Shown here: positions 1 through 11,847 of the stretch, in pieces
Position numbering within the stretch: the stretch's first letter is position 1
Layout: each line of letters opens with the position of its first letter
Source of the DNA: Candidatus Aenigmatarchaeota archaeon
GTDB taxonomy: Archaea; Aenigmatarchaeota; Aenigmatarchaeia; QMZP01; QMZT01
NCBI GenBank assembly: GCA_041489155.1
Contig: JBGPQP010000020.1
Coordinates: 1 to 11,847, forward strand
Direction of reading: 5' to 3'
Length of the DNA stretch: 11,847 nt
Notes under the pieces: model-generated
Seen by the model: only the letters and a program-made list of their open reading frames with translations
Told to the model about the DNA's origin: nothing
The model's database searches: none
Made by a program: the position numbers and the translations under genes

Positions 1-348
1 AAAAACCATTCACATATAAATCTGAGGCTTCTTTTAGTCTGTCCAAAACCCATATATTAAGTGAAATTTTATTGATTTTAGGAATGTCTCTTATGTTTTT
101 TTATTGATTTTAGGAATGTCTCTTATGTTTTTTATTTTTTCTCCGTCTTCTTTAACGACATTTATTGTCCAAATAGATTTTTTCCAATCTTCAATAATTT
201 CTTTTTTACTATTTTCATTTAACTCATTTATATTTTCCGGTATTTTTTCCGGTATTTTGTTCCAATAAAAATATTCATCTCCCGCGAATTCTTTACCAAA
301 CCATTTATGTCGTTTTTTTATCTTTTTTGAATTTTCATTATGTCTCAT
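1..348 (-). pseudogene. AT-rich hypothetical gene frameshifted by a 32-bp tandem duplication; runs off the window start
   Basis: ORF 91..348 ends ...KNIRDIPKINKKT*. A second minus-strand frame reads KNIRDIPKINKISLNIWVLDRLKEASDLYVNGF with no stop to position 1. The frames join at the duplication 71-133. Confidence 0.6.
71..133. repeat. Tandem duplication, period 32 bp (ATTGATTTTAGGAATGTCTCTTATG + T7/T6)
   Basis: Copies at 71-102 and 103-133, identical except for the length of the final T run. Confidence 0.95.
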
Positions 349-522
349 ATTTCAGAATTCGAACTTTGCCTTAAAAGTCATGTTTAAACACAAAAATCCC
401 CGTTTAGGGCCCTTATATGTCAGCTACTCCAATATATATCATACAATTAGGATAACGGTTAGGAGAATAATGTGAACATCGGAATTGAAAGGTCGCCAGG
501 AAAGTTTATTCTCAATCGTATC

Positions 523-633
523 ATGCAAAATCTGTGCACCGTGTGCGGCAAGGATTCGACCAACGCGGTCCAGATATATCCGTCGCAAGCTTGGGAATAT
601 TACTGCAGGGAATGTTACGATAAGAGGAAATAG
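523..633 (+). CDS. Small zinc-finger protein (CxxC-x19-CxxC), 36 aa; alternative GTG start at 472 (53 aa)
   Basis: Manual translation MQNLCTVCGKDSTNAVQIYPSQAWEYYCRECYDKRK*. The in-frame GTG at 472 is preceded by AGGAGA (461-466). A hairpin plus T-tract follows the stop. Confidence 0.7.
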   Translation: MQNLCTVCGKDSTNAVQIYPSQAWEYYCRECYDKRK

Positions 634-649
634 TCGAACCAATATCTGA

Positions 650-672
650 GCGGGAAAGACCCGTTTTTCTTC
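650..672 (+). terminator. Putative terminator downstream of the zinc-finger ORF
   Basis: GCGGG-AAAGA-CCCGT hairpin followed by TTTTCTT, between convergent genes and nested in an ATCTGAG...CTCAGAT inverted repeat (644-691). Confidence 0.45.
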
Positions 673-718
673 GGTATCGGATAACTCAGATTCAAGTCCG
701 CCGGTTTTTGCGTGGCCC

Positions 719-1456
719 TTAGCGCGGAAGCTTGAGGTCGCGCTTATCGATTATTAGATACCGCTTCCCTTTGAAGTCAAGGTTTTCTAACCTAAGGCCT
801 CCGATTGCCACGCGCCTCAGCGAAACCACGCTGTTACCTAGCACCTCGAACATCTTCTTCACCTGGCGCTTCCTGCCTTCATTGATTCCTATTTCAACCC
901 GCCTTTCATCAAGCCTTTTGATCGCGATGGCCTTTACGAAAAACGCCTTATCCGTGTCGTCGTCCTCGATTTCGACTCCGCGCTGCAGCGCCGTTATGTC
1001 ATCATCGCTGACAGGGGCGGCGGTCCCGACGGAATACGTCTTCAGGACCCGGTTCCCGCTTTTCGTGAGCAGCTTCTCCAGCTGGCCGTCGTTCGTCACT
1101 ATTAACAGGCCTTCAGTGTCTCTGTCCAGCCTGCCGACGCAGAAAAGACCCGCCCGCGTCTTCGGGTCGATTTCTTCCATGGACGCTATAACGTCATATA
1201 CCGATTTTTCCTTGTCCGTCTTCTGGCAGACCATGCCGGCTTCCTTGTTCAAAATCATATAAACGAATGGCTTCACCTCGAGCGGATGCCCGTCGAGTTT
1301 CACGGCAGCATGCGCCTTTACCGAATGGCCCGGGTTCGTGGCCTTCGCTCCGTCGACGGTCACGCGGCCGTCGAGGACGGCCTGTTCCGCCGCGGACGAG
1401 CGTTCGAAATCGCCGGAGCGCATGAGCAGCGATAGCAAACGAAGTTTTTTAGACAT
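719..1456 (-). CDS. RsuA/RluB/E/F-family rRNA pseudouridine synthase with N-terminal S4 domain
   Basis: Catalytic motif VGRLDRDTEGLL; S4-like N-terminus (GRVTVDG); YMILNK; EGRKRQVKKMF and LRRVAIGGLRL C-terminal motifs. Confidence 0.93.
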   Translation of the reverse strand: MSKKLRLLSLLMRSGDFERSSAAEQAVLDGRVTVDGAKATNPGHSVKAHAAVKLDGHPLEVKPFVYMILNKEAGMVCQKTDKEKSVYDVIASMEEIDPKTRAGLFCVGRLDRDTEGLLIVTNDGQLEKLLTKSGNRVLKTYSVGTAAPVSDDDITALQRGVEIEDDDTDKAFFVKAIAIKRLDERRVEIGINEGRKRQVKKMFEVLGNSVVSLRRVAIGGLRLENLDFKGKRYLIIDKRDLKLPR

Positions 1457-1531
1457 AATGAGTAAATGAAATTCTCGGATTTTTATTTATGGTTCCCATA
1501 ATAATACCGGAAGGATTGAGGTTGTTGGTTT

Positions 1532-1996
1532 ATGAAAAGATCCGCAAACATCAAGGCGCAGTCCGCGATGGAATATCTGATGTCGTATGGCTGGGCCATC
1601 CTGGTTCTGGTGATAATGGGGGCGGCGTTTTATGCCCTGGGTCTGTTCAATCCAACGACATTTGCAGGCCGCACGGTGACGGGCTTTCAGGTGCTGGGAA
1701 CCCCGCTTGACTGGGAACTGACGAGCGCTGACGGCAAGATGACGCTAAACCTTGTAAACGGCAGGTTTTCAACGCCAGTGACCATATACCAAATAACAGC
1801 CACGATAAACGGGCAGGGCGCCTCATACGACACGGGCAATCTGGTAATCGAGCCGGGCGCCTCCAGCACGGTAACGTTCCCGATGGCGCAGGCGCTGCCG
1901 AAAGGGTCAACCTATTCTGTCAAGGTCGCGATAGTGTACAATTCAGGCGGGCTCAACCACACGGACATGGGAACCGTGACCGGCTTGGTGAACTAG
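1532..1996 (+). CDS. Class III signal peptide (archaeal type IV pilin-like) protein
   Basis: Basic N-terminus, KA/QSAMEYLMSYGWAILVLVIMGAAF with Glu at +5 and a hydrophobic helix, then a beta-rich Ser/Thr/Gly domain. Confidence 0.85.
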   Translation: MKRSANIKAQSAMEYLMSYGWAILVLVIMGAAFYALGLFNPTTFAGRTVTGFQVLGTPLDWELTSADGKMTLNLVNGRFSTPVTIYQITATINGQGASYDTGNLVIEPGASSTVTFPMAQALPKGSTYSVKVAIVYNSGGLNHTDMGTVTGLVN

Positions 1997-2044
1997 AGAA
2001 AATTATTTCACAATCTCTTTTTGATTTAACTCTTTATTCGGTTA

Positions 2045-2072
2045 ATATTTATATATTTAAATAAACAAATAT
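2045..2072. promoter_or_regulatory. Putative ArsR operator overlapping a TATA-like promoter
   Basis: ATATTTATATATTT|AAATAAACAAATAT: 14+14 inverted repeat with 12/14 matches directly upstream of the ArsR gene. The AT-rich context raises the chance-match risk. Confidence 0.6.
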
Positions 2073-2079
2073 GTTTCAC

Positions 2080-2337
2080 ATGGACAAGGTCATACTTTTC
2101 AGGGCGCTGTCGGATGCCACCAGGCTGAAGATACTCGAACTTCTCAGGAGCGGCGAGAGATGCGCCTGCGAGATTCCGTCGAAAGTGGGGAAATCGCAGC
2201 CCAACGTTTCGCTGCATCTCAAGATACTGAAAGACGCCGGCATACTCGCCAGCAGGAAAGACGGCAAGAAGATTCTTTATCGTGTCGCTAGGCCCGAAAT
2301 TTACAAACTAATCGAAGGGGCGAAAAAGATAAAATGA
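2080..2337 (+). CDS. arsR: ArsR/SmtB-family metalloregulatory repressor
   Basis: FRALSDATRLKILELL, ERCACEI (compare ELCVCDL of As(III)-sensing ArsR), SQPNVSLHLKILKDAGI winged HTH. Alternative start 2071. Confidence 0.92.
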   Translation: MDKVILFRALSDATRLKILELLRSGERCACEIPSKVGKSQPNVSLHLKILKDAGILASRKDGKKILYRVARPEIYKLIEGAKKIK

Positions 2338-2346
2338 AGTGATTTG

Positions 2347-3459
2347 ATGGAAAACAGGAGTGCGTTTATCATTCTGGTCGTGGTTTTTCTGGCCCTTTAT
2401 TTCATGCCGGCCGGTTCCCTGCTCTTTGACGGGGCGATACTCAACGCCTTTTCGCTCCTGCACGAGTACGCGACCCAGCACGTCATAACGTGCCTTATAC
2501 CCGCGCTTTTCATAGCCGGTGCCATATCCGTCTTCATCAAAAAAGATTCGGTCATAAAATACATGGGCCCTTCCGCGAAAAAATACATGTCCTATACCAT
2601 AGCATCAGTATCGGGGGCGATACTCGCGGTGTGCTCATGCACGGTCCTTCCGCTGTTCGCCAGTATCAGGAAGCGTGGTGCGGGACTCGGACCGGCCGTG
2701 ACGTTCCTCTTCTCCGGCCCGGCGATAAACATAACTGCCATGTTCCTGACCATCAGCGTGCTCGGCTGGCAGATAGGCGCCGCCAGGATTGTTGCGTCCA
2801 TATCGCTGTCAATACTCGTCGGGCTGACCATGGCTTTCATCTTTCGGGAGAAGGCCGGGAGAGGCAAGTGGAAAATCAAGAAAAGGAAGGCCAAGCCGGA
2901 CGCCAAGGCTTTCGTTGCCGTGCTTTTCCTTTCACTCGTCGGCATACTAGTAGTCAATGGAATACAGACGGGCTTTTTCATAAAATATGCTGTCATGGCC
3001 GCGCTTGCGGTGATTGCAGTCTTCGTAGGCATTTTCGGCTTGAACAGGGAATCCTCGAAAGAATGGCTTGGAGAGACGTGGTTCTACGCCAAAAAACTTA
3101 TTCCCATGCTTTTCATCGGTGTTTTCATAGCCGGAGTCATCATGTATGTTATCCCGGAAGAATTTATCAGAAGTGTAGCCGGGCAAAACACTTTCTTGGG
3201 AAACCTTGCGGTCTCCGTATTCGGGGCTTTCATGTATTTCTCGACGCTTACAGAGATTCCGATAATGCAGGCGCTTATGACCAAGGGCATGCACGCAGGT
3301 CCTGCGTTGTCTTTGCTGTTATCTGGTCCGACCCTGAGCCTTCCCAGCATGCTGGCGATAAGGCAATTCATGGGCAACAAAAAGACGATAGCCTACGTCT
3401 TGCTGGTGATAATTTACTCCGCACTGGCCGGCTTTATTTTCGGGATGATTGCGACTTAG
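2347..3459 (+). CDS. ArsP/DUF318-family permease
   Basis: Polytopic membrane protein with LAVCSCTVLPLF, GPAVTFLFSGPAIN, YFSTLTEIPI and GPTLSLPSM motifs; 9 nt downstream of arsR. Confidence 0.88.
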   Translation: MENRSAFIILVVVFLALYFMPAGSLLFDGAILNAFSLLHEYATQHVITCLIPALFIAGAISVFIKKDSVIKYMGPSAKKYMSYTIASVSGAILAVCSCTVLPLFASIRKRGAGLGPAVTFLFSGPAINITAMFLTISVLGWQIGAARIVASISLSILVGLTMAFIFREKAGRGKWKIKKRKAKPDAKAFVAVLFLSLVGILVVNGIQTGFFIKYAVMAALAVIAVFVGIFGLNRESSKEWLGETWFYAKKLIPMLFIGVFIAGVIMYVIPEEFIRSVAGQNTFLGNLAVSVFGAFMYFSTLTEIPIMQALMTKGMHAGPALSLLLSGPTLSLPSMLAIRQFMGNKKTIAYVLLVIIYSALAGFIFGMIAT

Positions 3460-3521
3460 AACGTGAAGTGTCTTTCATTGTATTCTTTTTAAAGTGTGGC
3501 CGATGTATATCGATTTGACCC

Positions 3522-3597
3522 AAGCCCCAGGAGGGCAAAGAACTGAATTCTCAGATAAGAGGTTTCTACCTATTTATTATCAAGAAAGTTTAAAAGA
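3522..3597. repeat. 76-bp end module A (tRNA 3' copy + conserved block + 20 nt + GTTTAAAAGA)
   Basis: Aligns with 4251-4326: AAGCCC(C)AGGAGG, 23/29 identity over AGAAC...GGTTTCT, 20-nt unrelated stretch, identical GTTTAAAAGA. Confidence 0.85.
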
Positions 3598-3670
3598 GTG
3601 GTGTTTTTTAATAATTTACATGCAAAAAGGAAAGGAGGCGATGCACCCCAAAAGCAAACGAATTTCTGAC

Positions 3671-3934
3671 TTACTGTTTTTTGAAATTCCTGGCTGCATC
3701 AGCGACTTTTTTCCCTTCGTTGTCCAATACTTCTAGAACCCTTTTTTTAATATCCGCACTTGTCACTTCATTTCTGCTCTTGAAATGTTCCTCAACGTCT
3801 CTTACAGCACTGTCTGCTATTTCCGTGGACCTATTTTTGTCGATGTTTGCGTCTGCTGCTGCCCTTTCAATAGCTCTTCTAAGTTTATTACTGTCGAAGT
3901 CCTCTCGCTGGTCATCTCTTTTTATAATTTTCAT
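3671..3934 (-). CDS. Stand-alone ATP-cone domain protein
   Basis: MKIIKRDDQREDFDSNKLRRAI...VTSADIKKRVLEVL matches the ATP-cone pattern also present in NrdR and the RNR in this window; SD GGAGGT upstream. Confidence 0.88.
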   Translation of the reverse strand: MKIIKRDDQREDFDSNKLRRAIERAAADANIDKNRSTEIADSAVRDVEEHFKSRNEVTSADIKKRVLEVLDNEGKKVADAARNFKKQ

Positions 3935-4002
3935 AACAAATACCTCCAGTATTAAAGTAAGTGAAGATTAACCTGAGGGCATATAAAGTAATCTAGGAGG
4001 GG

Positions 4003-4197
4003 CTATGACGCATCAGTCCTTTTCCTGTTGGCATACCTCTCCAGCACATCCTTTTTTATGAACCAGTTCCTGCCCAGTTTGACTGCTTCAATTCTGTCTT
4101 TCCTGACAAGCTCGTAATCCAGAAACCGGGTTATGATTTCGTGATTGTTTTCGCTGGTAGAATTAAGCAGTCTTTCCTCACATCTTCCATACTCCAC
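4003..4197 (-). pseudogene. Excisionase-like (HTH_17/MerR-like) DNA-binding domain, probably N-terminally degenerate
   Basis: The C-terminal half YELVRKDRIEAVKLGRNWFIKKDVLERY fits the xis-type wing motif; the usual N-terminal 'T..EvA..L' helix is not recognisable. Confidence 0.55.
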
Positions 4198-4250
4198 GAG
4201 GACAGAAGACCCAGGACTGTGGACAATGGGGGATTTAAACCCCAGGTTGA

Positions 4251-4326
4251 AAGCCCAGGAGGACGTTAGAACCGAATTCCCATTTAGAAGGTTTCTTTGG
4301 AGTGGTTAGGACTTTGGTTTAAAAGA
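4251..4326. repeat. 76-bp end module B
   Basis: AAGCCCAGGAGGACGTTAGAACCGAATTCCCATTTAGAAGGTTTCT-N20-GTTTAAAAGA; same layout and length as 3522-3597. Confidence 0.85.
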
Positions 4327-4347
4327 TTTTGTTTGGACATGGATATG

Positions 4348-4917
4348 CTAGCTAATTGCAGGTATTACTTTCAGGCCCATGCCCTCCAGTCTTTTCTTTA
4401 ATTTTCCGAGGGCTTTGTGTATATCTTCAATGTTCCTGCCGCCCGCACATATTATTTTTCCTGATCCGAAAAGAAGGAAAACTATCCTAGGATTCCTCAT
4501 CCTGTAGACTAGTCCGGGAAATCTTTCAGGGTCGTACTCAACTTCGTTCATTTGTATTGCCATATCCTCCAGCATCAGCTTCGGTTTTGCTTCAATCTTT
4601 GTTGAGGCGACTATGTTTTCAATTATTATCGTGAATTTTTTGGGCATCGGTATTCCTGCCTTTCTTATGTCGTCCACCACCTTATTTATTGCCTCCTTTG
4701 CCATTTCTGTTGTTTTCGCTCCTGTGCACACAATCTTTCCCGTGGAGAATATGAGTGCGGAAGCTCTCGGATTGCTTATCCTATAGACCAGACCAGGGAA
4801 ACGTTCTGGATTGTATTCCGTGTTATTCATCTTTTCAACAAGTTTGTTAAGAGAAATTTTTCTGTTAAGAACTGCAAATGCCACGACGTTTTCTATCTTG
4901 ACCTGAAATTTAACCAT
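4348..4917 (-). CDS. tbp: TATA-box-binding protein (possibly an accessory paralog)
   Basis: Two TBP repeats: IENVVA...YNPERFPGLVYRISNPRASALIFSTGKIVCTGAK and IENIVAS...YDPERFPGLVYRMRNPRIVFLLFGSGKIICAGGR. ATG 4917 preferred because TTTTAATT lies 24-31 nt upstream; the ORF track starts at 4938. Confidence 0.96.
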   Translation of the reverse strand: MVKFQVKIENVVAFAVLNRKISLNKLVEKMNNTEYNPERFPGLVYRISNPRASALIFSTGKIVCTGAKTTEMAKEAINKVVDDIRKAGIPMPKKFTIIIENIVASTKIEAKPKLMLEDMAIQMNEVEYDPERFPGLVYRMRNPRIVFLLFGSGKIICAGGRNIEDIHKALGKLKKRLEGMGLKVIPAIS

Positions 4918-4955
4918 GAGAAAGTTTATCCGTAACATCTAATTAAAACAAGGTA

Positions 4956-5105
4956 AGCCCCAGGAGGGATTTGAACCCTCAACCTATCGATATCTTATGC
5001 GAATGACATGCACTGCATGCATGTCGGCATGCTGAAGTCATCAGCCGCGAAGGCTTCTTCATATCGATACAAGTCGATCGCTCTACCAGGTTGAGCTACT
5101 GAGGC
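4956..5105 (-). tRNA. tRNA-Thr(UGU) with a 76-nt intron at 37/38 (intron 4992-5067); CCA not encoded
   Basis: Minus strand: GCCTCAG TA GCTC AACCTGGTA GAGC G ATCGA CT TGT A [intron] A TCGAT AGGTT GAGGG TTCAAAT CCCTC CTGGGGC T. C32-U33-U34-G35 pairs with intron UAAG, followed by a 3-nt AU/A bulge (relaxed bulge-helix-bulge/loop). Confidence 0.95.
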
Positions 5106-5188
5106 AACGTTTCGATGGACGCAGGTGGAACCTGCGTCTGTGGCTTGTCCAGCGGATGACAATTGCTTGCGCAATTGTCGGCTTGCTG
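5003..5188 (-). repeat. Three related GAC...GTC hairpin units (tRNA intron 5003-5034; upstream 5115-5147 and 5156-5188)
   Basis: Perfect 8-9 bp stems GACATGCA/TGCATGTC, GACGCAGGT/ACCTGCGTC and GACAATTGC/GCAATTGTC, with shared flanks ATG(G)AC... and GGC(A/T)TG. Confidence 0.7.
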
Positions 5189-5274
5189 TCTGTCTGACTA
5201 ATTAACTTTTTTGCGCTTGAATGTTTAAATTAATGACTGCGACCAAATAAGAATATAATTATCAGGCGATAGGC

Positions 5275-6447
5275 ATGTTTGGCAGGCTGACGAAAGGGAT
5301 CGACGACCCGGACTACAGGAGAGCGCTAGTCATATTGTTCTTCTTTGCCCTGTTCTTCTCGTTCACTTCATTCACCCTTCCCGTTTACATGTCCTCGATA
5401 GGCATGAACGGCTACGAGATAGGCATCCTCATCGCGTTATATACCGTGGCCTCGATATTCGTCACCTTCCCGACCGGCGTGATAAACGACAAGTGGACGA
5501 TAAAGCTCACCGTGATAAGCGGCTTCCTCATGCTCTCGGTTTACTTCTTCGGCCTGGGCTTTTTCGAGAGCTTCGTGATATTCATGCCGCTCTTCCTCAT
5601 CGGAGGGCTTGGCAACAACATATGCGACATCTCGCTGCGCTCGCTGGCTTTCAAGACTGACATGAAGGGCATGGAGGGCAGGAAGTTCGGAACGTTCAGC
5701 CTTGTAAAATTCCTCTCGGCTTCTCTGGGTCTTTTCATCGGCGGCTCGCTAGTCTTCCTCGTCGGCTTCAAGCTCGGCTTCGAGATAATGGGCCTGCTTT
5801 ACCTGCTGGTCATACCCTTCATCTCATTCAAGTCGATTTCCAAGAGTACAATAAAGCTCGGCCAGTACAGGAAGGACGTCCTCACAAAAAAGGTGGTTTT
5901 CCTCGCCGTGGTGATGTTCATCTTTTCTCTGCACTGGGGCTCGGAAAGGACGACGTTCGGCCTCTTCCTGAAGAACGGCCTGGGACTTGACATATTCTGG
6001 CTGGGAGTTTACACTTCGCTTTCGCTCCCCTTCTTGGGCATAGGCTCGTATTACTTCGGCAGGAGAATAGACGCAGGCAAGAGCAACCTGAAGCTCGTCT
6101 ATGTCGCCGGCATGATGATGTCAGGCGTTTCCTACATTCTCAATACAGTGCCTGTCCCGTGGTTCTCTTTCGTCATGCGCATGTTCCACGAGTTCGGCGA
6201 CGGCATGGCCGACATAGCGGTTTACTTCTGGATATCGAAGCTGTTCAAAGTCGAGCGCGTGGGCGGCAGCTCCACTGTATTGTTTACTGTGATGCTGCTG
6301 GGGCAGATAACGGGCTCGCTGATATTCGGCCCGCTCGGGCAGATTGCCGGCTACCATGTGCCCATCATAATAACCGGCATAACCTCCATCGCAAGCGCAT
6401 TACTGCTGCTGGTCTTTGTGAAAATATTCAAAGTCAGCGAGAAATAG
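5275..6447 (+). CDS. Major facilitator superfamily transporter
   Basis: 390 aa with about 12 hydrophobic segments; motif A-like GVINDKWTIK after TM2 and GRRIDAGK in the second half. Confidence 0.88.
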   Translation: MFGRLTKGIDDPDYRRALVILFFFALFFSFTSFTLPVYMSSIGMNGYEIGILIALYTVASIFVTFPTGVINDKWTIKLTVISGFLMLSVYFFGLGFFESFVIFMPLFLIGGLGNNICDISLRSLAFKTDMKGMEGRKFGTFSLVKFLSASLGLFIGGSLVFLVGFKLGFEIMGLLYLLVIPFISFKSISKSTIKLGQYRKDVLTKKVVFLAVVMFIFSLHWGSERTTFGLFLKNGLGLDIFWLGVYTSLSLPFLGIGSYYFGRRIDAGKSNLKLVYVAGMMMSGVSYILNTVPVPWFSFVMRMFHEFGDGMADIAVYFWISKLFKVERVGGSSTVLFTVMLLGQITGSLIFGPLGQIAGYHVPIIITGITSIASALLLLVFVKIFKVSEK

Positions 6448-6450
6448 CAG

Positions 6451-7020
6451 CTAGCCCTCGGACTTTGCGATGCCTAGCTTTTTGGCGAGGGCGATTATTG
6501 CCTTGCGGAATTCGCTGAATGTGCCGTCATTGCTGACCGCGAGGTCAGCGAGTTTTATGGTCTCGTTTATTATCTTTTCCGTCTCCCTCTGCTCGATTTC
6601 CAAAAACTGCTTCATGGTCAGACGGCCCTCGCCCTTCGTGCCGCGCCTGACGACGCGCTCGTAGCGTTTCTTTGTGCTGCAGCTCACATAAACGAGCCTG
6701 AAACCGTCGCCGAACCTTTTCTTGAAGTAGCTGACTTCCTCTGGATAGCGCACGCCACTTATCGCCCAATAGCCTTCGGATTCTATCTTGTCGCAGATGA
6801 GTTTTGTCAGGATATGCTTGCCGCCCTTCCTGCGCATTTCCAGCGCCAGGTCTATAAGGTTTTCGCGCGTCACTTCCTTCCCCGTCTGTCTGAGGAGCGG
6901 CGAGAGGACGTCGTTCGTATACGTCAAGACGCGGAAGCCGTACTTCGCCTTGAGATATTCGGCCATCGTGTCCTTCCCCGATCCCCGCTTGCCCGTCAGG
7001 CCCAGAACAAGGAATTCCAT
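6451..7020 (-). CDS. P-loop nucleotide kinase-like protein (dephospho-CoA kinase/NMP kinase-like, archaeal COG0237 type)
   Basis: N-terminal Walker A GLTGKRGSGKDT, SGVRYPEE, lid-like RYERVVRRG and ADLAVSNDGT. Confidence 0.8.
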   Translation of the reverse strand: MEFLVLGLTGKRGSGKDTMAEYLKAKYGFRVLTYTNDVLSPLLRQTGKEVTRENLIDLALEMRRKGGKHILTKLICDKIESEGYWAISGVRYPEEVSYFKKRFGDGFRLVYVSCSTKKRYERVVRRGTKGEGRLTMKQFLEIEQRETEKIINETIKLADLAVSNDGTFSEFRKAIIALAKKLGIAKSEG

Positions 7021-7075
7021 TTATAGAAATTGCAGAGTGGACTTAAATAAAATTTACTATAATAGGTGTGATATT

Positions 7076-7116
7076 TTTAAAAATAACGGAAGCGCCCGCT
7101 ACCCCGGGCGTTCTGT
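7076..7116 (-). terminator. Putative terminator after the coiled-coil gene
   Basis: CGCCCG-6nt-CGGGCG stem (7093-7110) followed on the minus strand by CTTCCGTTATTTTT. Confidence 0.45.
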
Positions 7117-7125
7117 CGGTTTCGC

Positions 7126-7551
7126 CTAACCCCTGATTTCCTGGTCGAACTGGGCGATCTGGTGCTTCAGGGTTATCAGCATGTCATTCGTTTTCTGCAG
7201 AGATTTCTCGGCCATTTCCTTCTCTTTCCTGATGTTCCTTATCTGCTGGTTGAGGGTGAGCTTGTCTGATTCCATCGCGGCCTTGTCATCTTTCAGCGCG
7301 ATGACCTTTGACTGGAGCTCTTCTTCTTCCTCTTCTTTCCTTTTCATCTCTTCCTGCATCTTGTCCCTGGTTTTCTTGAGGTGGTCCACTACTTCCTTCA
7401 GCTGGATCTCCTCGTCCTTGAGCTGCCTTACCTTTTTCTCCAGAATCTTGCGCTCTTCCTTTATGTCCAAGGCCTTTACAACATCCTCGTTCAGCGTGGT
7501 CAGGACTTCGTCCAAACCTTCATGCACCTTAGCCATCGACTTCGTTGTCAT
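7126..7551 (-). CDS. Hypothetical coiled-coil protein
   Basis: E/K/Q/L-rich heptad pattern along the whole length; SD GAGGTG 5 nt before ATG 7551. Confidence 0.8.
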   Translation of the reverse strand: MTTKSMAKVHEGLDEVLTTLNEDVVKALDIKEERKILEKKVRQLKDEEIQLKEVVDHLKKTRDKMQEEMKRKEEEEEELQSKVIALKDDKAAMESDKLTLNQQIRNIRKEKEMAEKSLQKTNDMLITLKHQIAQFDQEIRG

Positions 7552-7616
7552 CAAGACACCTCGCTTATTTTATATTATAACACTTAATTTCTATATAAAA
7601 CCTTTGACGCCATCCG

Positions 7617-8000
7617 CTACTTCCCCTTCATTCTGTGGTGCTCTAACATCCTCAGTATCTCGGCTAGCTGCAGGTTTATGCTGTCCACGCTTACGCTGGA
7701 GGGAGCGAGTTCTACCCTGCCCTGCTGCAGCGCTTCCTTCTCCACCCAGCCGCCGTGCTCGTAAGAGTAAACATACTTGCTGCTTATGTTCAGGTCGTCG
7801 GTCAGCTTCTTTATCTTGCCTTCCATTATCTCGACGAGCTGCACGAGGGTTTCGTTGTTCTTCTCAAGCCTTCTGATCTGCTCCCTCAGCCCGGAGTTCT
7901 CCGCCTTCATCTTCCTGACAAGCTCCTGGTCCTTCTTGAGAATCTTTTTCGGGTCCCCCATGGAGGACGCGATGATTTTCTTTTCCCAGTAATCGGCCAT
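7617..8000 (-). CDS. Hypothetical protein with N-terminal coiled coil
   Basis: 127-aa ORF, heptads MKAENSGLREQIRRLEKNNETLVQLV, codon usage like neighbouring genes. Confidence 0.75.
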   Translation of the reverse strand: MADYWEKKIIASSMGDPKKILKKDQELVRKMKAENSGLREQIRRLEKNNETLVQLVEIMEGKIKKLTDDLNISSKYVYSYEHGGWVEKEALQQGRVELAPSSVSVDSINLQLAEILRMLEHHRMKGK

Positions 8001-8063
8001 AATAATTCTTATTGGCCCGTGCCCTTAAAAAATAATTCGCGCTTGCATGGCTTTGAAAGAGAA

Positions 8064-8399
8064 TCAGCAGAGCGATACGCCAGTCACTATGTCCCTGTCG
8101 CGCATGAGCTTGCACATCTTGCAGAATTCGAGCGCGGTATGATCCGGCCTGACTTCGCCTCTGGCTATCCTTTCGGTCGCCTTTTCGATGAAAGCGAGCA
8201 GCTCATGGTGCTTAAGGAAGACTGAAGTCTTCCTGCCGCGCAGCTCGCGCCTGTACTGCGAGATTGCGGGCTGCGTCGTGTCGAGCAGTTCCGCGACTTC
8301 GGTCTGCGAGAAGCCGTGGTCTTCCATGAGCTTCTTCGCGACGAGCGCTCGGAAGCCGGGCAGCATTTCGCTTATCATGTATTCGCATAAAGGTTTCAT
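8064..8399 (-). CDS. Archaeal HTH transcriptional regulator (COG2522-like) with C-terminal CxxC
   Basis: MKPLCE...LPGFRALVAKKL...GFSQTEVAELLDTTQPAISQY...RG and FCKMC; alternative starts 8408 and 8411. Confidence 0.85.
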   Translation of the reverse strand: MKPLCEYMISEMLPGFRALVAKKLMEDHGFSQTEVAELLDTTQPAISQYRRELRGRKTSVFLKHHELLAFIEKATERIARGEVRPDHTALEFCKMCKLMRDRDIVTGVSLC

Positions 8400-8453
8400 G
8401 TAAATCATCACAAATTTTCTTGGATTGATGTATTGGCGGAAGGGTTTATAAAC

Positions 8454-8470
8454 ATATCACGCTGTTATAT
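8454..8470. promoter_or_regulatory. Imperfect palindrome next to the TATA box of the HTH regulator gene
   Basis: ATATCAC-GCT-GTTATAT adjacent to TTTATAAA (8445-8452); the 11-mer ACGCTGTTATA recurs at 8798-8808. Confidence 0.45.
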
Positions 8471-8537
8471 TTCCCTCGAAACCAGTTTCGCAAAGTTGGT
8501 TTAAAAGGGCTCCCCCTTTCCGCATTATTTAAAAAAA

Positions 8538-8765
8538 TTACCTTAGTGAATGAGCTTTGTCACCAAAGCTCTCTTCAAATTCCTTGCGGAGTTTGTTTAA
8601 TTCCGAAGACGACTTGATTGCCCTTATCATTTTTTCCAGATCTTCTGTTTTAGGAAGCCATTCATATTTTTTACCGTAATCATCCGTAAATTCCGCCATT
8701 ATCGAGAAGTCTCCGGATTTGGTTTGTTTTTTATTTACCACCCATTTTACAAATTTCAGATTCAT
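8538..8765 (-). CDS. Hypothetical protein (~75 aa)
   Basis: MNLKFVKWVVNKKQ...; TTTAAA about 25 nt upstream of ATG 8765 suggests this start rather than 8855. Confidence 0.6.
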   Translation of the reverse strand: MNLKFVKWVVNKKQTKSGDFSIMAEFTDDYGKKYEWLPKTEDLEKMIRAIKSSSELNKLRKEFEESFGDKAHSLR

Positions 8766-8889
8766 CGTTAATAGTTTAAATTTTGATTTAAAAAGCGACG
8801 CTGTTATAATTTTTCCCGGCCCTGCCGTGCAAAGCAATTTAAAAGTTGCTTTCAATTATCAAGCGACCTTTTTTTGCGTTTATACCAGG

Positions 8890-9279
8890 ATGGTTGTCTT
8901 CATGTATGGAAACTCTGCATATGATAACGGCAGAATCAAGAACTGGTACGGCTTCACGGCAAGAAGGCATAACTCCTTGCTGAATTTTTATATTGATCCC
9001 GCCATTCCGGGCGATTTCATAGAACTCAAGATAAAATACCTGCTTGAAGGCGCTAGGAGAGCGGAAGAGAGCTTGAGAGGGCTTGCCGGTTTTTATGCTG
9101 ACATTGAAAAAAGGTGCGGCAAGATTATGGAGTACAGGGCAAGGCTGGGGGGAAAACATGCCGAAAAACTTCTCCTCCTTATTCTCATTTCGATTGCTTT
9201 GCCAAAGCTCGCGGTTTCGCAGCCACTTCTGAATGGCATTTGCAGCAAGATATCCCTGTTGTACCAGTCACTCAATTAG
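8890..9279 (+). CDS. Hypothetical protein
   Basis: 3' part of ORF 8719..9279 from ATG 8890 (or 8902); fills the gap and stops 4 nt from the convergent DUF362 gene; no motif recognised. Confidence 0.55.
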   Translation: MVVFMYGNSAYDNGRIKNWYGFTARRHNSLLNFYIDPAIPGDFIELKIKYLLEGARRAEESLRGLAGFYADIEKRCGKIMEYRARLGGKHAEKLLLLILISIALPKLAVSQPLLNGICSKISLLYQSLN

Positions 9280-9283
9280 CAGA

Positions 9284-10312
9284 TCAGACCTTCACAATTT
9301 CATATGTTCTTTTCCCCATCCCGAGCTTTTCCGCGTATTGCGGTTGGACGGAGACGTCGATCTTGTTGGCGTCCCTGAAGACGTCTCTGCCTGCCTTGTT
9401 TATTATCATATCTATTGAGGCCTGCTCTATCGCCACGACATCGCTGGACGCGAGGATGCCGATGTCCCTCACCATCGGTTTGCCGGAATCCGCGAGGCAG
9501 TCGCAGTGCGGCGTGATGTTGAGCAGGAAGTTAAAGTAAAGCGTCTTGATTTTATTCGTGATGCCGCAGGCGTATTCGACTATGCGTTCCTGTATCTCTT
9601 CGGCGGTCGTGTTGAACCATGGGATTTCGACCGCGCCGTAAGGGCAGACTGCGATGCAGGTCGCGCAGCCGATGCATTTCGCCTTGTCCATGACCGCGTA
9701 TTCTTCGAGGACGATCGCGTCCGCCGGGCAGTTTTTGACGCAAAGGCCGCACGCTTTGCATTTGTTTTGTTTGAAGACGGGCTTGACCTTCGCGTGCATT
9801 TCGAGCTTGCCCGCGCGGCTGCCGAGGCCCATGCCCACGTTCTTGAGCGCCCCGCCGTAGCCTGCGATGGCATGGCCTTTGCAGTGCGTGACAGCGATCA
9901 TCATCTTGTAGTTCTTCAGGCCTGCGCCGACCTTTATTTTCTTGAAATGCTTCCCGCGGATCGGGATTTGCCACTCCTTACCGCCGTCGTCGCAGATGAC
10001 GACATGCGCGAAATCGAAGCCGTGCCTTTTCGCGAGCGAGAGATGCGTTTCAGTTTTCAGGCGTTCCCCGCGGTAGAGCGTGTTGCACTCGACCAGCTCC
10101 GGCTCGCCGCCGCGGATGCGGACGATGTCGCATATCTTCTTCGCGAACGCCGGGTCGAGATGGGTCTTGTTACCCTTCTCGCCGAAATGCATCTTGATGG
10201 CGACGCGCTTGCCGCGGACGCCGAAGTCCTGCGATATCTTCTCATAGAGCTTCTCTATCGCCTGCAGCATTTCGTCCTTCGAAACCTCCGGTGAAAAGTA
10301 GACCTTTGACAT
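9284..10312 (-). CDS. DUF362-domain protein with a 2x[4Fe-4S] ferredoxin insert (COG2768-like)
   Basis: VAIKMHFGEKGN, CNTLYRGER, HCKGHAIAGYGGALKNVGMG, CKACGLCVKNCP, CIGCATCIAVCP, NITPHCDC, DIGILASSDVVAIEQAS. Confidence 0.92.
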   Translation of the reverse strand: MSKVYFSPEVSKDEMLQAIEKLYEKISQDFGVRGKRVAIKMHFGEKGNKTHLDPAFAKKICDIVRIRGGEPELVECNTLYRGERLKTETHLSLAKRHGFDFAHVVICDDGGKEWQIPIRGKHFKKIKVGAGLKNYKMMIAVTHCKGHAIAGYGGALKNVGMGLGSRAGKLEMHAKVKPVFKQNKCKACGLCVKNCPADAIVLEEYAVMDKAKCIGCATCIAVCPYGAVEIPWFNTTAEEIQERIVEYACGITNKIKTLYFNFLLNITPHCDCLADSGKPMVRDIGILASSDVVAIEQASIDMIINKAGRDVFRDANKIDVSVQPQYAEKLGMGKRTYEIVKV

Positions 10313-10371
10313 GCTAATAATTTCGCTGAATGGAATATAAAATTAAAATAAAAACCGGAAAGAAAAAGCGG

Positions 10372-10680
10372 TTACTTCTTCACGACTTTTTGCTCCTTGA
10401 GAATCATCTTCGCTATCAAGAAGATGACGAAGGCGATTATCACGAAGTTTATGATTGCGCTCAGGAACGAGCCCCATTTCAGTATTACCGGCCCTATCTG
10501 GAACGTTGATACCTTCCAGTCGCCCGTCGCTGAAAGTGCAGGCGAAATCACCGGCATTATTATGTCGTTGACAAGCGACTGCACGAGCGTCGTGAGCGCG
10601 GCGCCTATGATGAAGGCGATGGCGAGGCCCATTACCTTGTATTCGTCAAGGAACTGTTTGAACTCTTTTATAATACCCAT
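10372..10680 (-). CDS. mscL: Large-conductance mechanosensitive channel
   Basis: IKEFKQFL, GLAIAFIIGAA, LVQSLVNDIIMP, WGSFLSAIINFVIIAF; SD GGAGGTG. Confidence 0.93.
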   Translation of the reverse strand: MGIIKEFKQFLDEYKVMGLAIAFIIGAALTTLVQSLVNDIIMPVISPALSATGDWKVSTFQIGPVILKWGSFLSAIINFVIIAFVIFLIAKMILKEQKVVKK

Positions 10681-10784
10681 CTGGACACCTCCTGTTGAAG
10701 TGAATACAAAGGTTAAATAAAAACTTTTGCGCGGCCTTCAGCGGAAAAAATTTTGCAAATTCCGAAAATATATGTCGCAGCATA

Positions 10785-10798
10785 GAAAAGTTTATAAA
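10785..10798 (+). promoter_or_regulatory. BRE/TATA promoter of the nrdR-RNR operon
   Basis: GAAAAG followed by TTTATAAA (10791-10798), just upstream of the NrdR boxes. Confidence 0.65.
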
Positions 10799-10808
10799 GG
10801 ATACCCGA

Positions 10809-10855
10809 CTACTATATATTGGTGTTTTAAGGCGAACGAACACAATATATTGTGT
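10809..10855 (+). promoter_or_regulatory. Tandem NrdR boxes
   Basis: ctaCTATATATTGgtg (10809-10824) and the perfect palindrome ACACAATATATTGTGT (10840-10855) match acaCwAtATaTwGtgt and start 31 bp apart. Confidence 0.9.
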
Positions 10856-10905
10856 TTTCTGTCGGTAGTGAAAATCGCCTTATTTCATAAAAAGCGAGGG
10901 AAAAA

Positions 10906-11361
10906 ATGCGCTGCCCGTACTGCTCGAGCGACGAACTGAAGGTGCTTGACAAGAGAACTTCTGACGAGAAATCAATATGGCGGAGAAGGGAGTGCCTGAA
11001 ATGCGGCAAACGCTTCACCACGTACGAGCGCGTCGAATCCGTCGATCTCATCGTCGTGAAGAAGGACGGCAGGCGCGAGCGCTTCGACAGGAACAAGCTG
11101 AAATCAGGCATCCTCAAGTCGTGCGAAAAGAGGCCGATAACCAACGAGATGATAGAGAAGACGGTGGACGAGATAGAAGGCGAACTGCGCGGGGAGGACA
11201 GCATCGAGATACCGAGCAGGAGGATAGGCGAGCTCGTCATGAAAAAGCTGAAGAAGCTGGACAAAGTTGCTTACATCCGCTTCGCGTCGGTTTACAGGGA
11301 GTTCGAGGACATCGAGAGCTTCCAGAACGAACTGAAGAAGCTCACGGGGGGGAAGGTGTGA
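10906..11361 (+). CDS. nrdR: Transcriptional repressor NrdR
   Basis: MRCPYC...RRRECLKCGKRFTTYER zinc ribbon, ATP cone VVKKDGRRERFDRNKL, and LDKVAYIRFASVYREF. Confidence 0.97.
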   Translation: MRCPYCSSDELKVLDKRTSDEKSIWRRRECLKCGKRFTTYERVESVDLIVVKKDGRRERFDRNKLKSGILKSCEKRPITNEMIEKTVDEIEGELRGEDSIEIPSRRIGELVMKKLKKLDKVAYIRFASVYREFEDIESFQNELKKLTGGKV

Positions 11362-11365
11362 ACGC

Positions 11366-11847
11366 ATGGTTCTGAAGAAAGTTAAAAAGAGGGATGGACG
11401 CATAGTGGACTTCGACATGGACAAGATTATCAACGCGGTTTTCAAGGCCGCCAAATCTGTCGGCGGCGAGGACATGGAGCTCGCCAAGAAGCTCGCCGAG
11501 CAGGTGATGCAAGAGGTAGACGAGAAGTTCCCGAAGGAAATTCCGTCGGTCGAGGACATACAGGACATAGTCGAGAAGGTCCTGATAGAGAACGGCCACG
11601 CCATGACCGCGAAGGCGTACATACTTTACAGGAAAGAAAGGGAGGAGGCGAGGAAGGCGAAGGAGATGCTCGGCGTGAGGGACGAGCTCAAGCTTTCGGT
11701 AAACACGATAAAGGTCCTGAAAGCGAGATACCTTATAAAAGACGAGGAAGGCAACGTCATCGAATCGACCTCGGAGATGTTCAGGCGCGTAGCGAGGCAT
11801 ATCGCGCTGGCAGACATCCTTTACCACTACCTTGTCTTCGACAAGGA
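11366..11847 (+). CDS. nrdJ: Ribonucleotide reductase with N-terminal ATP cone, probably class II (B12-dependent); truncated by the window end
   Basis: Manual translation MVLKKVKKRDGRIVDFDMDKIINAVFKAA...SVEDIQDIVEKVLIENGH..TAKAYILYR...LSVNTIKVLKARYLIKDEEGNVIES..EMFRRVA; open to the end. The post-cone motif fits class II/Ia, not class III. Confidence 0.85.
   Translation, partial: MVLKKVKKRDGRIVDFDMDKIINAVFKAAKSVGGEDMELAKKLAEQVMQEVDEKFPKEIPSVEDIQDIVEKVLIENGHAMTAKAYILYRKEREEARKAKEMLGVRDELKLSVNTIKVLKARYLIKDEEGNVIESTSEMFRRVARHIALADILYHYLVFDK

Follow-up and report, generated by a model that had tools for sequence, protein, structure and literature searches.

A lineage-specific hairpin repeat, possibly REP-like, in the leader and intron of an aenigmatarchaeal tRNA-Thr gene

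The present study addresses a question raised by a stretch of 11,847 nt from a Candidatus Aenigmatarchaeota archaeon (assembly GCA_041489155.1, contig JBGPQP010000020.1, positions 1 to 11,847 of the forward strand; hereafter the window): why does an intron-bearing tRNA-Thr(UGU) gene on the minus strand carry, once in its intron and twice in its leader, what appears to be the same hairpin? An earlier note on this DNA had placed three hairpins here and had proposed either a mini element resembling repetitive extragenic palindromes (REPs) or a repeated protein-binding RNA motif. The three, here called U1 (intron), U2 (distal leader) and U3 (proximal leader), were found at those places on the minus strand, and all start with GAC, end with GTC and are paired at every stem position. 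Positions 4940-5240 hold three perfect hairpins with at least 8 bp and a loop of 3-5 nt, compared with a mean of 0.014 and a maximum of 2 in dinucleotide-preserving shuffles of the same segment, none of 5000 of which reached three, and with a density of 0.034 per 301 nt for perfect hairpins of at least 8 bp across the source genome (G000; 1.13 Mb, 39 contigs, 49% G+C, completeness 89.65%). One loop on the tRNA-sense strand, GCAA in U2, is of the GNRA type, as had been noted. The claim of conserved flanks stood for U1 and U2, which have CAGCAWGCC (8 of 9 positions) and ATYCG (4 of 5) in common, and was weaker for U3, in which the 5' flank aligns only once shifted (AAGCC-ACA) and the tail reads CATCG.

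On balance, and with little confidence to spare, we read U1-U3 as members of a REP-like, lineage-specific family of palindromes whose copying and loss take place in the DNA and whose copies are tolerated in RNA that is discarded. Copies are scattered through the genome and through one archaeal family, where they have been gained, lost, nested, arranged in tandem and homogenized. A scan of G000 for perfect GAC...GTC hairpins found the same hairpin type in or beside other tRNA genes. A covariance model (R1) was built from 17 aligned units, nine of them from G000 and eight from the orthologous tRNA-Thr loci of four further genomes of the same genus (G001-G004), and with E up to 1.8 and the two strands of a place merged it matched 15 places in G000. 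Eleven of these lie within or at most 100 nt from the 31 tRNA genes, 0.88% of the genome (binomial P 3e-20). Many tRNA genes of G000 are intron-bearing when ARAGORN is run with introns allowed, and the intron-hosted copies are spread over four of them, namely tRNA-Thr of the window, C3:6549-6744, C9:8170-8423 and a tRNA-Lys gene on C2. The enrichment that the earlier note had named as support for its reading was thus observed, with further copies in tRNA introns, leaders and a trailer, in rRNA spacers and beside protein genes.

Beyond the genus, R1 had matches in 20 of 23 genomes from the same taxonomic family, between 1 and 34 in each, a count in which palindromic copies often score on both strands. 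Three genera of the family had none or one (g2, 0; g4, 0; g8, 0-1). In a sample of 151 genomes from the phylum, searched with E up to 1e-5, 11 of 12 members of the same family were positive, no match was obtained in 138 genomes from 27 other families, and one further family had a single match in one of seven genomes. The near absence of matches outside the family indicates that the repeat is lineage-specific, and the same result serves as a specificity control for R1. No account of this GAC...GTC element was found in the full-text literature searched, a scope that leaves out most subscription journals and supplements.

Anatomy was examined in 61 distinct copies from relatives fitted to R1, and in a larger set of 99 copies. 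The closing pairs G-C, A-U and C-G were near invariant among the 61 and the next three were mostly G-C, C-G and A-U, giving a stem foot of GACGCA/TGCGTC, while the upper three pairs were variable yet paired. The last four columns of the stem had C in 47 and T in 14 copies, then G in 54, T in 58 and C in all 61, and since the unit is a palindrome the other end reads GACG. The 3' tail was W-T-T-C-G (T 58, C 60 and G 55 of 61), followed by A/C, A/T and A and continuing as AAA or CTG; the 5' flank was weakly conserved, with the consensus A-G-A/C-Y-Y. Loops were mostly of 3 nt (GAA in 25 of the 99 copies, GCA in 12, GTA in 5 and TTC in 5), with CTTG in 6. That stem interiors vary and stay paired, as the earlier note had it for the three units, holds across the family: 98.8% of 720 cells pair, eight of nine pairs change on both sides, there are 152 double changes and none of 500 shuffles equalled this, in an alignment that is itself fitted to R1 and holds both strands of some places. 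Non-Watson-Crick cells in the 61 copies were G-T or T-G in 25 cases and A-C in 4, a comparison biased by R1 picking the better-pairing strand; as a test for the transcribed strand it was set aside for that reason, the antisense copies being few and mostly perfect. Pairing of the 5' flank with the distal tail into an outer helix showed a weak excess (mean longest helix 3.48 vs 3.31; 72 of 2000 permutations at least as high); such a helix is formed in U2 (CAGC/GCUG) and is no general feature of the repeat family. A kink-turn (K-turn) in the GAC...GTC unit itself was rejected because the 3' strand has UC where GA is required.

U2 occurs in all five tRNA-Thr orthologues of the genus with compensatory stem changes (cores AATT, CATG and GCATGC), and a second leader hairpin occurs in G000 and G004 only, with unrelated sequences in the two. 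U1 is present in four of the five orthologues and missing from G001, whose empty site has TTTCG|TAGG where the filled site of G003 has CTTCG|ATAAGCC-hairpin-ATTCG|C, with TCG at the bounds. The sole leader hairpin of G001 combines the stem of U2 with the 12-nt tail of U3 and looks like the product of a deletion between two units. Turnover was seen at other tRNA genes as well: a leader unit of tRNA-Trp is present in G000 and absent from G002, G003 and G004, and a leader unit of tRNA-Gly is present in G000, G003 and G004, with three different stems, and absent from G002. Within G002 tRNA-Thr, the leader and intron units match base for base over 28 nt, and in G003 the two hairpins are one base apart, which indicates concerted evolution. 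The 21 nt of U3 are identical (21/21) to a hairpin at G000:C3:5606-5626 ahead of a protein gene, with 93% identity over 28 nt, although the loci are unlinked and the flanks unrelated. In the tRNA-Asp/tRNA-Lys spacer of G002 (L087; G002:C18:23227-23673) one unit sits inside the loop of another, and in two other genomes (L041 and L056) three units follow head to tail with a period of 38 nt. On one contig from another sediment sample (depth 4.3, hence weak evidence) the U3 loop GGA was replaced by its reverse complement TCC, the product that template switching in a DNA hairpin would be expected to give. Gain, loss, nesting and homogenization thus support the first of the two proposals of the earlier note.

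Position in the genome was classified by hand, from Rfam matches and flanks, for 52 copies of the genus (15 of G000, 8 of tRNA-Thr orthologues and 29 best further matches). There were 22 in tRNA leaders, 13 in introns, 2 in trailers and 1 upstream in antisense, 3 adjacent to rRNA, 1 before a tRNA-like fragment and 10 adjacent to protein genes. In relatives there were also copies in the 16S-23S spacer and some 60 nt ahead of 23S (L033, L034), as well as downstream of 5S, and some stood just ahead of ribosome-binding sites. Of 42 copies adjacent to stable RNAs, 36 were sense and 6 antisense by hand count, with the strand as preferred by R1. In one relative a unit in the opposite orientation makes up, as read by eye, an entire 40-nt D-loop intron of tRNA-Thr(CGU) with a clean bulge-helix-bulge (L049).

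A mechanism consistent with these patterns would be DNA-level copying in which units recombine or undergo gene conversion with one another, with slippage between the short TCG repeats that bound the units as a further possible route. Units would then persist where the transcript is discarded or untranslated, i.e. in tRNA leaders, introns and trailers, in rRNA spacers and in spacers before ribosome-binding sites, and since a unit folds on itself in the RNA the host would be left undisturbed. In the tRNA-Thr intron, the tail of U1 would provide the UCG strand of an inner helix beside the bulge-helix-bulge cut by the endonuclease.

Several observations weigh against this account. The first is a tight register that neither a neutral nor a selfish repeat predicts. 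With the tRNA 5' end placed by an Rfam or ARAGORN match or by a 7-nt acceptor strand plus U8, the distance from the end of the leader hairpin to tRNA +1 was 11 nt (7 copies), 12 nt (11) or 13 nt (8) in all 26 measurable leader-proximal copies, many of which are orthologous and hence not independent; about a dozen different tRNA genes are represented. Three were left out of the count: C4:38071, which precedes a tRNA-like fragment, L013:1750, with an ambiguous start, and the tRNA-Gly of G004, with a diverged stem and a distance of about 15 nt. In some mRNA cases the distance from the hairpin to GGAGG or AGGTG was exactly 12 nt (4 of 8; L030, L040, L088, L092). Secondly, a conserved foot and tail with a free upper stem is the pattern of a protein-binding site; certain stem types recur across several genera (GCATAC in 18, GCAGGT in 11 and GCAGAT in 7 of the 99 copies); and U2 is fully paired in all five orthologues despite diverged flanks. 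Thirdly, an empty site may reflect a deletion stimulated by the hairpin and not the state before insertion, so that mobility in the strict sense is not established. Finally, no Y1/HUH transposase (PF01797) was found in G000, which is 89.65% complete and was not searched for other transposase classes, and in the family PF01797 was present in 4 of 23 genomes, unrelated to hairpin counts.

Some of these points also speak for a second explanation, which we regard as possible without expecting it, namely that hairpin and tail are a functional cis-acting RNA signal read by a lineage-specific protein, by RNase P or by the splicing endonuclease. Such a signal would set or protect processing sites in pre-tRNA, pre-rRNA and some mRNAs and would have spread through its usefulness; as an example, it could be a protective hairpin at the 5' terminus kept 11-13 nt from the RNase P site. 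In its favour, the constancy of the register contrasts with the spacing on the upstream side, where the hairpin follows the TATA-like box by anything from about 14 to 50 nt and no fixed distance between promoter and hairpin was found. In introns at position 37/38 the unit occupies the 3' end and leaves 11-15 nt to the 3' exon (U1 13, G002 and G003 12, G004 13, L089 13, L043 14 and L010 15), and an antisense copy past tRNA-Tyr has its hairpin 12 nt from the discriminator base, an arrangement repeated in two other genera (L036, L007). The 12-nt spacing to ribosome-binding sites in half of the mRNA cases, the retained foot and WTTCG tail under a co-varying upper stem, the sense bias of 36 to 6, the G-T excess over A-C (with its bias from strand choice) and the retention of U2 throughout the genus would all be expected of a signal. 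Processing factors are encoded in G000 as well: the RNase P proteins Pop5 (C8:1973-2260) and Rpp29 (C6:42506-42754), and a splicing endonuclease as one open reading frame of 396 aa with two tRNA_int_endo domains of the catalytic type (PF01974; C7:38508-39698, L098:859-2049). We take this two-domain enzyme to resemble the broad-specificity epsilon2 type of ARMAN-2. The Rfam model for archaeal RNase P RNA (RF00373) had no match in the 89.65% complete assembly, and this RNA is either divergent or unassembled.

Against a signal stands the finding that the same sites do without the unit, as in the tRNA-Trp leaders of G002, G003 and G004, the tRNA-Gly leader of G002 and the G001 intron without U1. 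The six antisense copies among the 42 present the reverse complement in RNA, g2, g4 and g8 have none or one unit and other families essentially none, and no candidate binding protein was identified. The tail length could also stem from descent and gene conversion of the leader jointly with the 5' end of the tRNA; in G002-G004 the tRNAs for Thr, Gly and Leu and another tRNA have CGCTGGTCAY as a common tail. The register accordingly has three candidate causes: a minimum spacing that RNase P needs for steric reasons together with strong pressure towards compaction, a reader protein, or that joint descent and conversion. If the register stems from a reader protein or from RNase P, the element would be a new kind of processing signal; otherwise it would be a selfish repeat on which genome compaction has left a clear mark. 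The 11-13 nt register and the conserved foot and tail thus lend some weight to the RNA motif that the earlier note had offered as its second proposal and that ranks below the REP-like repeat.

A narrower version of the signal, to which we give rather little credence, is that the hairpin with its WTTCG tail acts as a portable 'punctuation' ruler, a functional RNA starting 11-13 nt downstream and the mark being read by a lineage-specific protein or RNase P. Downstream would lie the 5' end of the tRNA, the 3' exon or, in a processed mRNA, the ribosome-binding site, and the module would spread by the service that it renders; we are equally reserved about this part. If true, archaea would have a processing signal for stable RNAs that is defined by sequence and of a type undescribed in them.

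It is improbable, in our estimate, that there is neither mobility at the level of the family nor function, and that old leader and intron parts were duplicated locally and swapped by gene conversion through the homology arms provided by exons. Units do abut conserved tRNA segments (position +1, the D-loop and position 37/38), leader and intron copies are homogenized within one gene in G002 and G003, tails are common among the tRNAs of one genome, and Thermoproteales are known to have introns that resemble each other across different tRNAs, as reviewed in PMC4033280. Such local exchange would not account for the 10 of 52 genus copies that lie by protein genes with no tRNA near, for the copies in rRNA spacers, for a copy within the loop of another copy, or for the identity of the hairpins U3 and C3:5606, whose loci are unlinked and whose flanks are unrelated. 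Hardly credible is an intrastrand triple-helix element in which the hairpin is joined by a mirror-image third tract, since, although a distinct module with homopurine/homopyrimidine arms and a purine tract adjoins some units (G000:C3:6520-6600, L070), the flanks of the 99 copies were no closer to their own arms than to those of others in eight tests, direct or mirrored (lowest 226 of 2000 permutations), the arms are mixed (in 88 of 99 the longest stretch of purines or of pyrimidines is 2-3 nt; mean purine fraction 0.61) and the tail is constant whatever the stem.

Several known element classes were also considered and set aside. Without homopurine/homopyrimidine arms or a co-varying third tract in the 99 copies, identity with triple-helix elements of the PIT, BoxC or TMECO type was rejected. 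Mobilization by REP-associated tyrosine transposases (RAYT) or IS200 was rejected on the evidence at hand because 19 of 23 family genomes have no Y1 transposase and because there is no GTAG tag, the stem opening with GAC. A clustered regularly interspaced short palindromic repeat (CRISPR) was rejected because Cas6 (PF01881) and Cas1 (PF01867) had no match in G000 and because copies are solitary or in tandem without spacers. Since Pop5 and Rpp29 are present, the idea of leader removal without RNase P was dropped, and a bulge-helix-bulge at the junction of leader and tRNA-Thr was dropped because, as read by eye, there is no complementary trailer.

The coordinates of the units and of the gene that hosts them are collected in Table 1.

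Table 1. Features of the tRNA-Thr locus (positions in the window) and model matches in the source genome G000 (contig:position)
Feature	Position	Strand	Basis
U1, intron hairpin (3' part of intron), 8-9 bp, GACATGCA/TGCATGTC	5005-5025	minus	perfect pairing; top model match in G000, 41 bits
U1 5' flank, CAGCAUGCC	5026-5034	minus	sequence
U1 tail, AUUCGCAUAAGAU, 13 nt	4992-5004	minus	sequence and constrained fold
U2, distal leader hairpin, 9 bp, GACAATTGC gcaa GCAATTGTC	5158-5179	minus	perfect pairing; model 40.7 bits
U2 5' flank, CAGCAAGCC	5180-5188	minus	sequence
U2 tail, AUCC-GCUG	5150-5157	minus	fold: GCUG pairs with CAGC 5185-5188 at minimum energy
U3, proximal leader hairpin, 9 bp, GACGCAGGT tcc ACCTGCGTC	5118-5138	minus	perfect pairing; model match
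U3 tail, CAUCGAAACGUU, 12 nt from hairpin to tRNA +1	5106-5117	minus	sequence
tRNA-Thr(UGU) gene, intron-bearing	4956-5105	minus	Rfam RF00005, 55.1 bits, with 78-nt insertion; ARAGORN in intron mode, tRNA-Thr(tgt)
tRNA-Thr 5' exon, 38 nt	5068-5105	minus	border read from bulge-helix-bulge
tRNA-Thr intron, 76 nt, position 37/38	4992-5067	minus	border read from bulge-helix-bulge
tRNA-Thr 3' exon, 36 nt	4956-4991	minus	border read from bulge-helix-bulge
Second intron hairpin, outside the GAC...GTC family, AUGAAGA-AGCC-uucgc-GGCU-GAUGA, with GA 5' and GAUGA 3'	5037-5062	minus	sequence
TTTAAA, palindromic	5224-5229	none	conserved in 5 of 5 genus orthologues (one is TTTAAG)
G000 copies in tRNA leaders (6)	U2, U3, C7:13602, C6:11143, C13:16852, C2:49933 (Asp-Lys spacer)		R1
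G000 copies in tRNA introns (4)	U1, C3:6612, C9:8233, C2:49830		R1
G000 copy in trailer (1), directly after tRNA-Tyr	C2:17632		R1
G000 copy before tRNA-like fragment (1)	C4:38071		R1
G000 copies beside protein genes (3)	C3:5606, C4:72984, C2:26706		R1

The gene is not called by ARAGORN at default settings, which exclude introns and return no tRNA in the window. In a constrained fold the bulge-helix-bulge conformer of the tRNA-Thr intron has -29.1 kcal/mol, compared with an unconstrained minimum of -31.4, a gap of 2.3 kcal/mol. Its outer helix pairs positions 27-31 with 39-43, the central helix pairs C32-G35 with UAAG, the bulges are UAU and AUA, and the inner helix of 3 bp joins CGA of the intron start to UCG of the U1 tail. 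Within that tail, UAAG is the strand that pairs with C32-G35, and AU falls in the 3' bulge. The central helix co-varies, with U32 and UAGA in G002 and G003 (C32-G replaced by U32-A). Because its tail forms one strand of the inner helix, U1 is a side hairpin on that helix, and because U1 is absent from G001, it is dispensable to the intron. The second intron hairpin is kept in all five orthologues of the genus with altered but paired stems and, going by its sequence, looks like a K-turn or C-box-like candidate site for L7Ae.

The TTTAAA to which the earlier note had drawn attention is present and is conserved among the genus orthologues. It lies upstream of U2 by 39-50 nt across orthologues, and is likely to be the TATA box of the tRNA-Thr transcript. 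A divergent gene for a major facilitator superfamily (MFS) transporter (PF07690; 5275-6447, plus strand) has its ATG 46 nt beyond the same box, which may be a shared or bidirectional promoter for the two. On the other side, a gene for the TATA-binding protein (TBP; PF00352, E 6.7e-55; 4348-4938, minus strand) starts 17 nt past the tRNA-Thr 3' end. This gap leaves no space for a TATA box of its own, so that the TBP gene is probably co-transcribed with tRNA-Thr and freed by processing of the tRNA.

Other families of intron repeats also occur in these genomes, either adjoining the GAC...GTC unit or standing where it would be. In one, a hairpin with homopurine/homopyrimidine arms, AAGCTCTTTT...AAAGAGCTT, precedes a purine tract; in a second, D-loop and T-loop introns carry the module AAACCC-TTTTGCGC...GCGCAAAA-GCGTTTACGG. 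Sites of these are G000:C3:6520-6600, L070:100-200 and L057-L059 (tRNA-Trp of G002-G004). A tRNA-like 5' fragment, AGCCCCGTGTTGTAGCGGTCAAGCA, at G000:C4:38104-38130 (L094) follows a unit by 12 nt and has TTTAAA behind it; neither Rfam nor ARAGORN found a full tRNA at this place. A tRNA-Gly(GCC) gene at G000:C6:10950-11130 on the minus strand, with introns in the D-loop and the T-loop, was missed by both ARAGORN and the Rfam tRNA model. Because of these units, standard tRNA finders miss genes in these genomes.

If the REP-like reading is correct, one family of very small archaea would harbour a REP-like hairpin precisely in the discarded segments of its tRNA and rRNA transcripts and of some mRNAs. 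As this one module is found in leaders, within larger introns and by itself as a mini-intron, it suggests a concrete way in which archaeal tRNA introns may grow and spread.

How does the repeat compare with systems already described? In the split and intron-bearing tRNAs of Nanoarchaeum and Caldivirga, as summarized in the review PMC4033280, sequence ahead of a tRNA piece likewise resembles intron sequence. There, according to the same review, the complementary leaders of two half-genes pair with each other to build the splice motif, whereas here the leader units fold on themselves and the tRNA is not split. Like GTAG REPs, REP doublets forming hairpins (REPINs) with RAYT, and the ends of IS200/IS605, the repeat has a conserved foot with an adjoining single-stranded motif, and TCG bounds the filled sites. 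It differs from GTAG REPs and REPINs in that there is no GTAG, no Y1 transposase in G000 and no doublet (REPIN) organization seen.

The 'intron transposition' of Fujishima (2010), as given in the review PMC4033280, refers to look-alike introns in different tRNAs of Thermoproteales, and on that description both systems have near-identical modules in different tRNA species and positions, many non-canonical introns and a broad-specificity type of endonuclease. The module here is a hairpin of about 30 nt with its tail rather than a whole intron (mini-introns such as L049 being the exception), is equally common outside introns, in leaders, trailers and rRNA or mRNA spacers, and belongs to a different lineage. 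U1 in particular is a 21-nt module with a tail inside a 76-nt intron and is not itself bounded by bulges, and U2 and U3 lie outside any intron.

The closest described kind appears to be the CGTC-tagged REPs (Di Nocera et al. 2013, PMC3733652), set side by side with the repeat on the published description. In that description they have stems of 8-9 bp ending in CGTC or TGTC (also CCTC), loops of 4-5 nt and a tail with the consensus CCA, are found in five bacterial phyla in several sub-types without a dedicated transposase, reach into the reduced host-dependent Rickettsia and Wolbachia, and are mostly head-to-head dimers downstream of genes. The present repeat resembles them in its stem (nine modelled pairs here against 8-9 bp), its CGTC/TGTC end, its short unpaired tail, its stem and loop sub-types, the lack of a dedicated transposase, its dispersed copies and the small genomes that hold it. 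It differs in being archaeal where the described ones are bacterial only, in its tail (WTTCG, not CCA), in its loops, mostly of 3 nt instead of 4-5, in its single, head-to-tail or nested organization, in the location of 41 of 52 genus copies in or beside genes for stable RNAs, and in the 11-13 nt register. Because tail, loop, dimer organization and location differ, the repeat is called REP-like and is not counted among the CGTC-tagged REPs. It thus joins the short palindromic repeats of bacteria with the look-alike tRNA introns of Thermoproteales and, relative to those introns as they have been described, extends the phenomenon to leaders, trailers, rRNA spacers and mRNA spacers.

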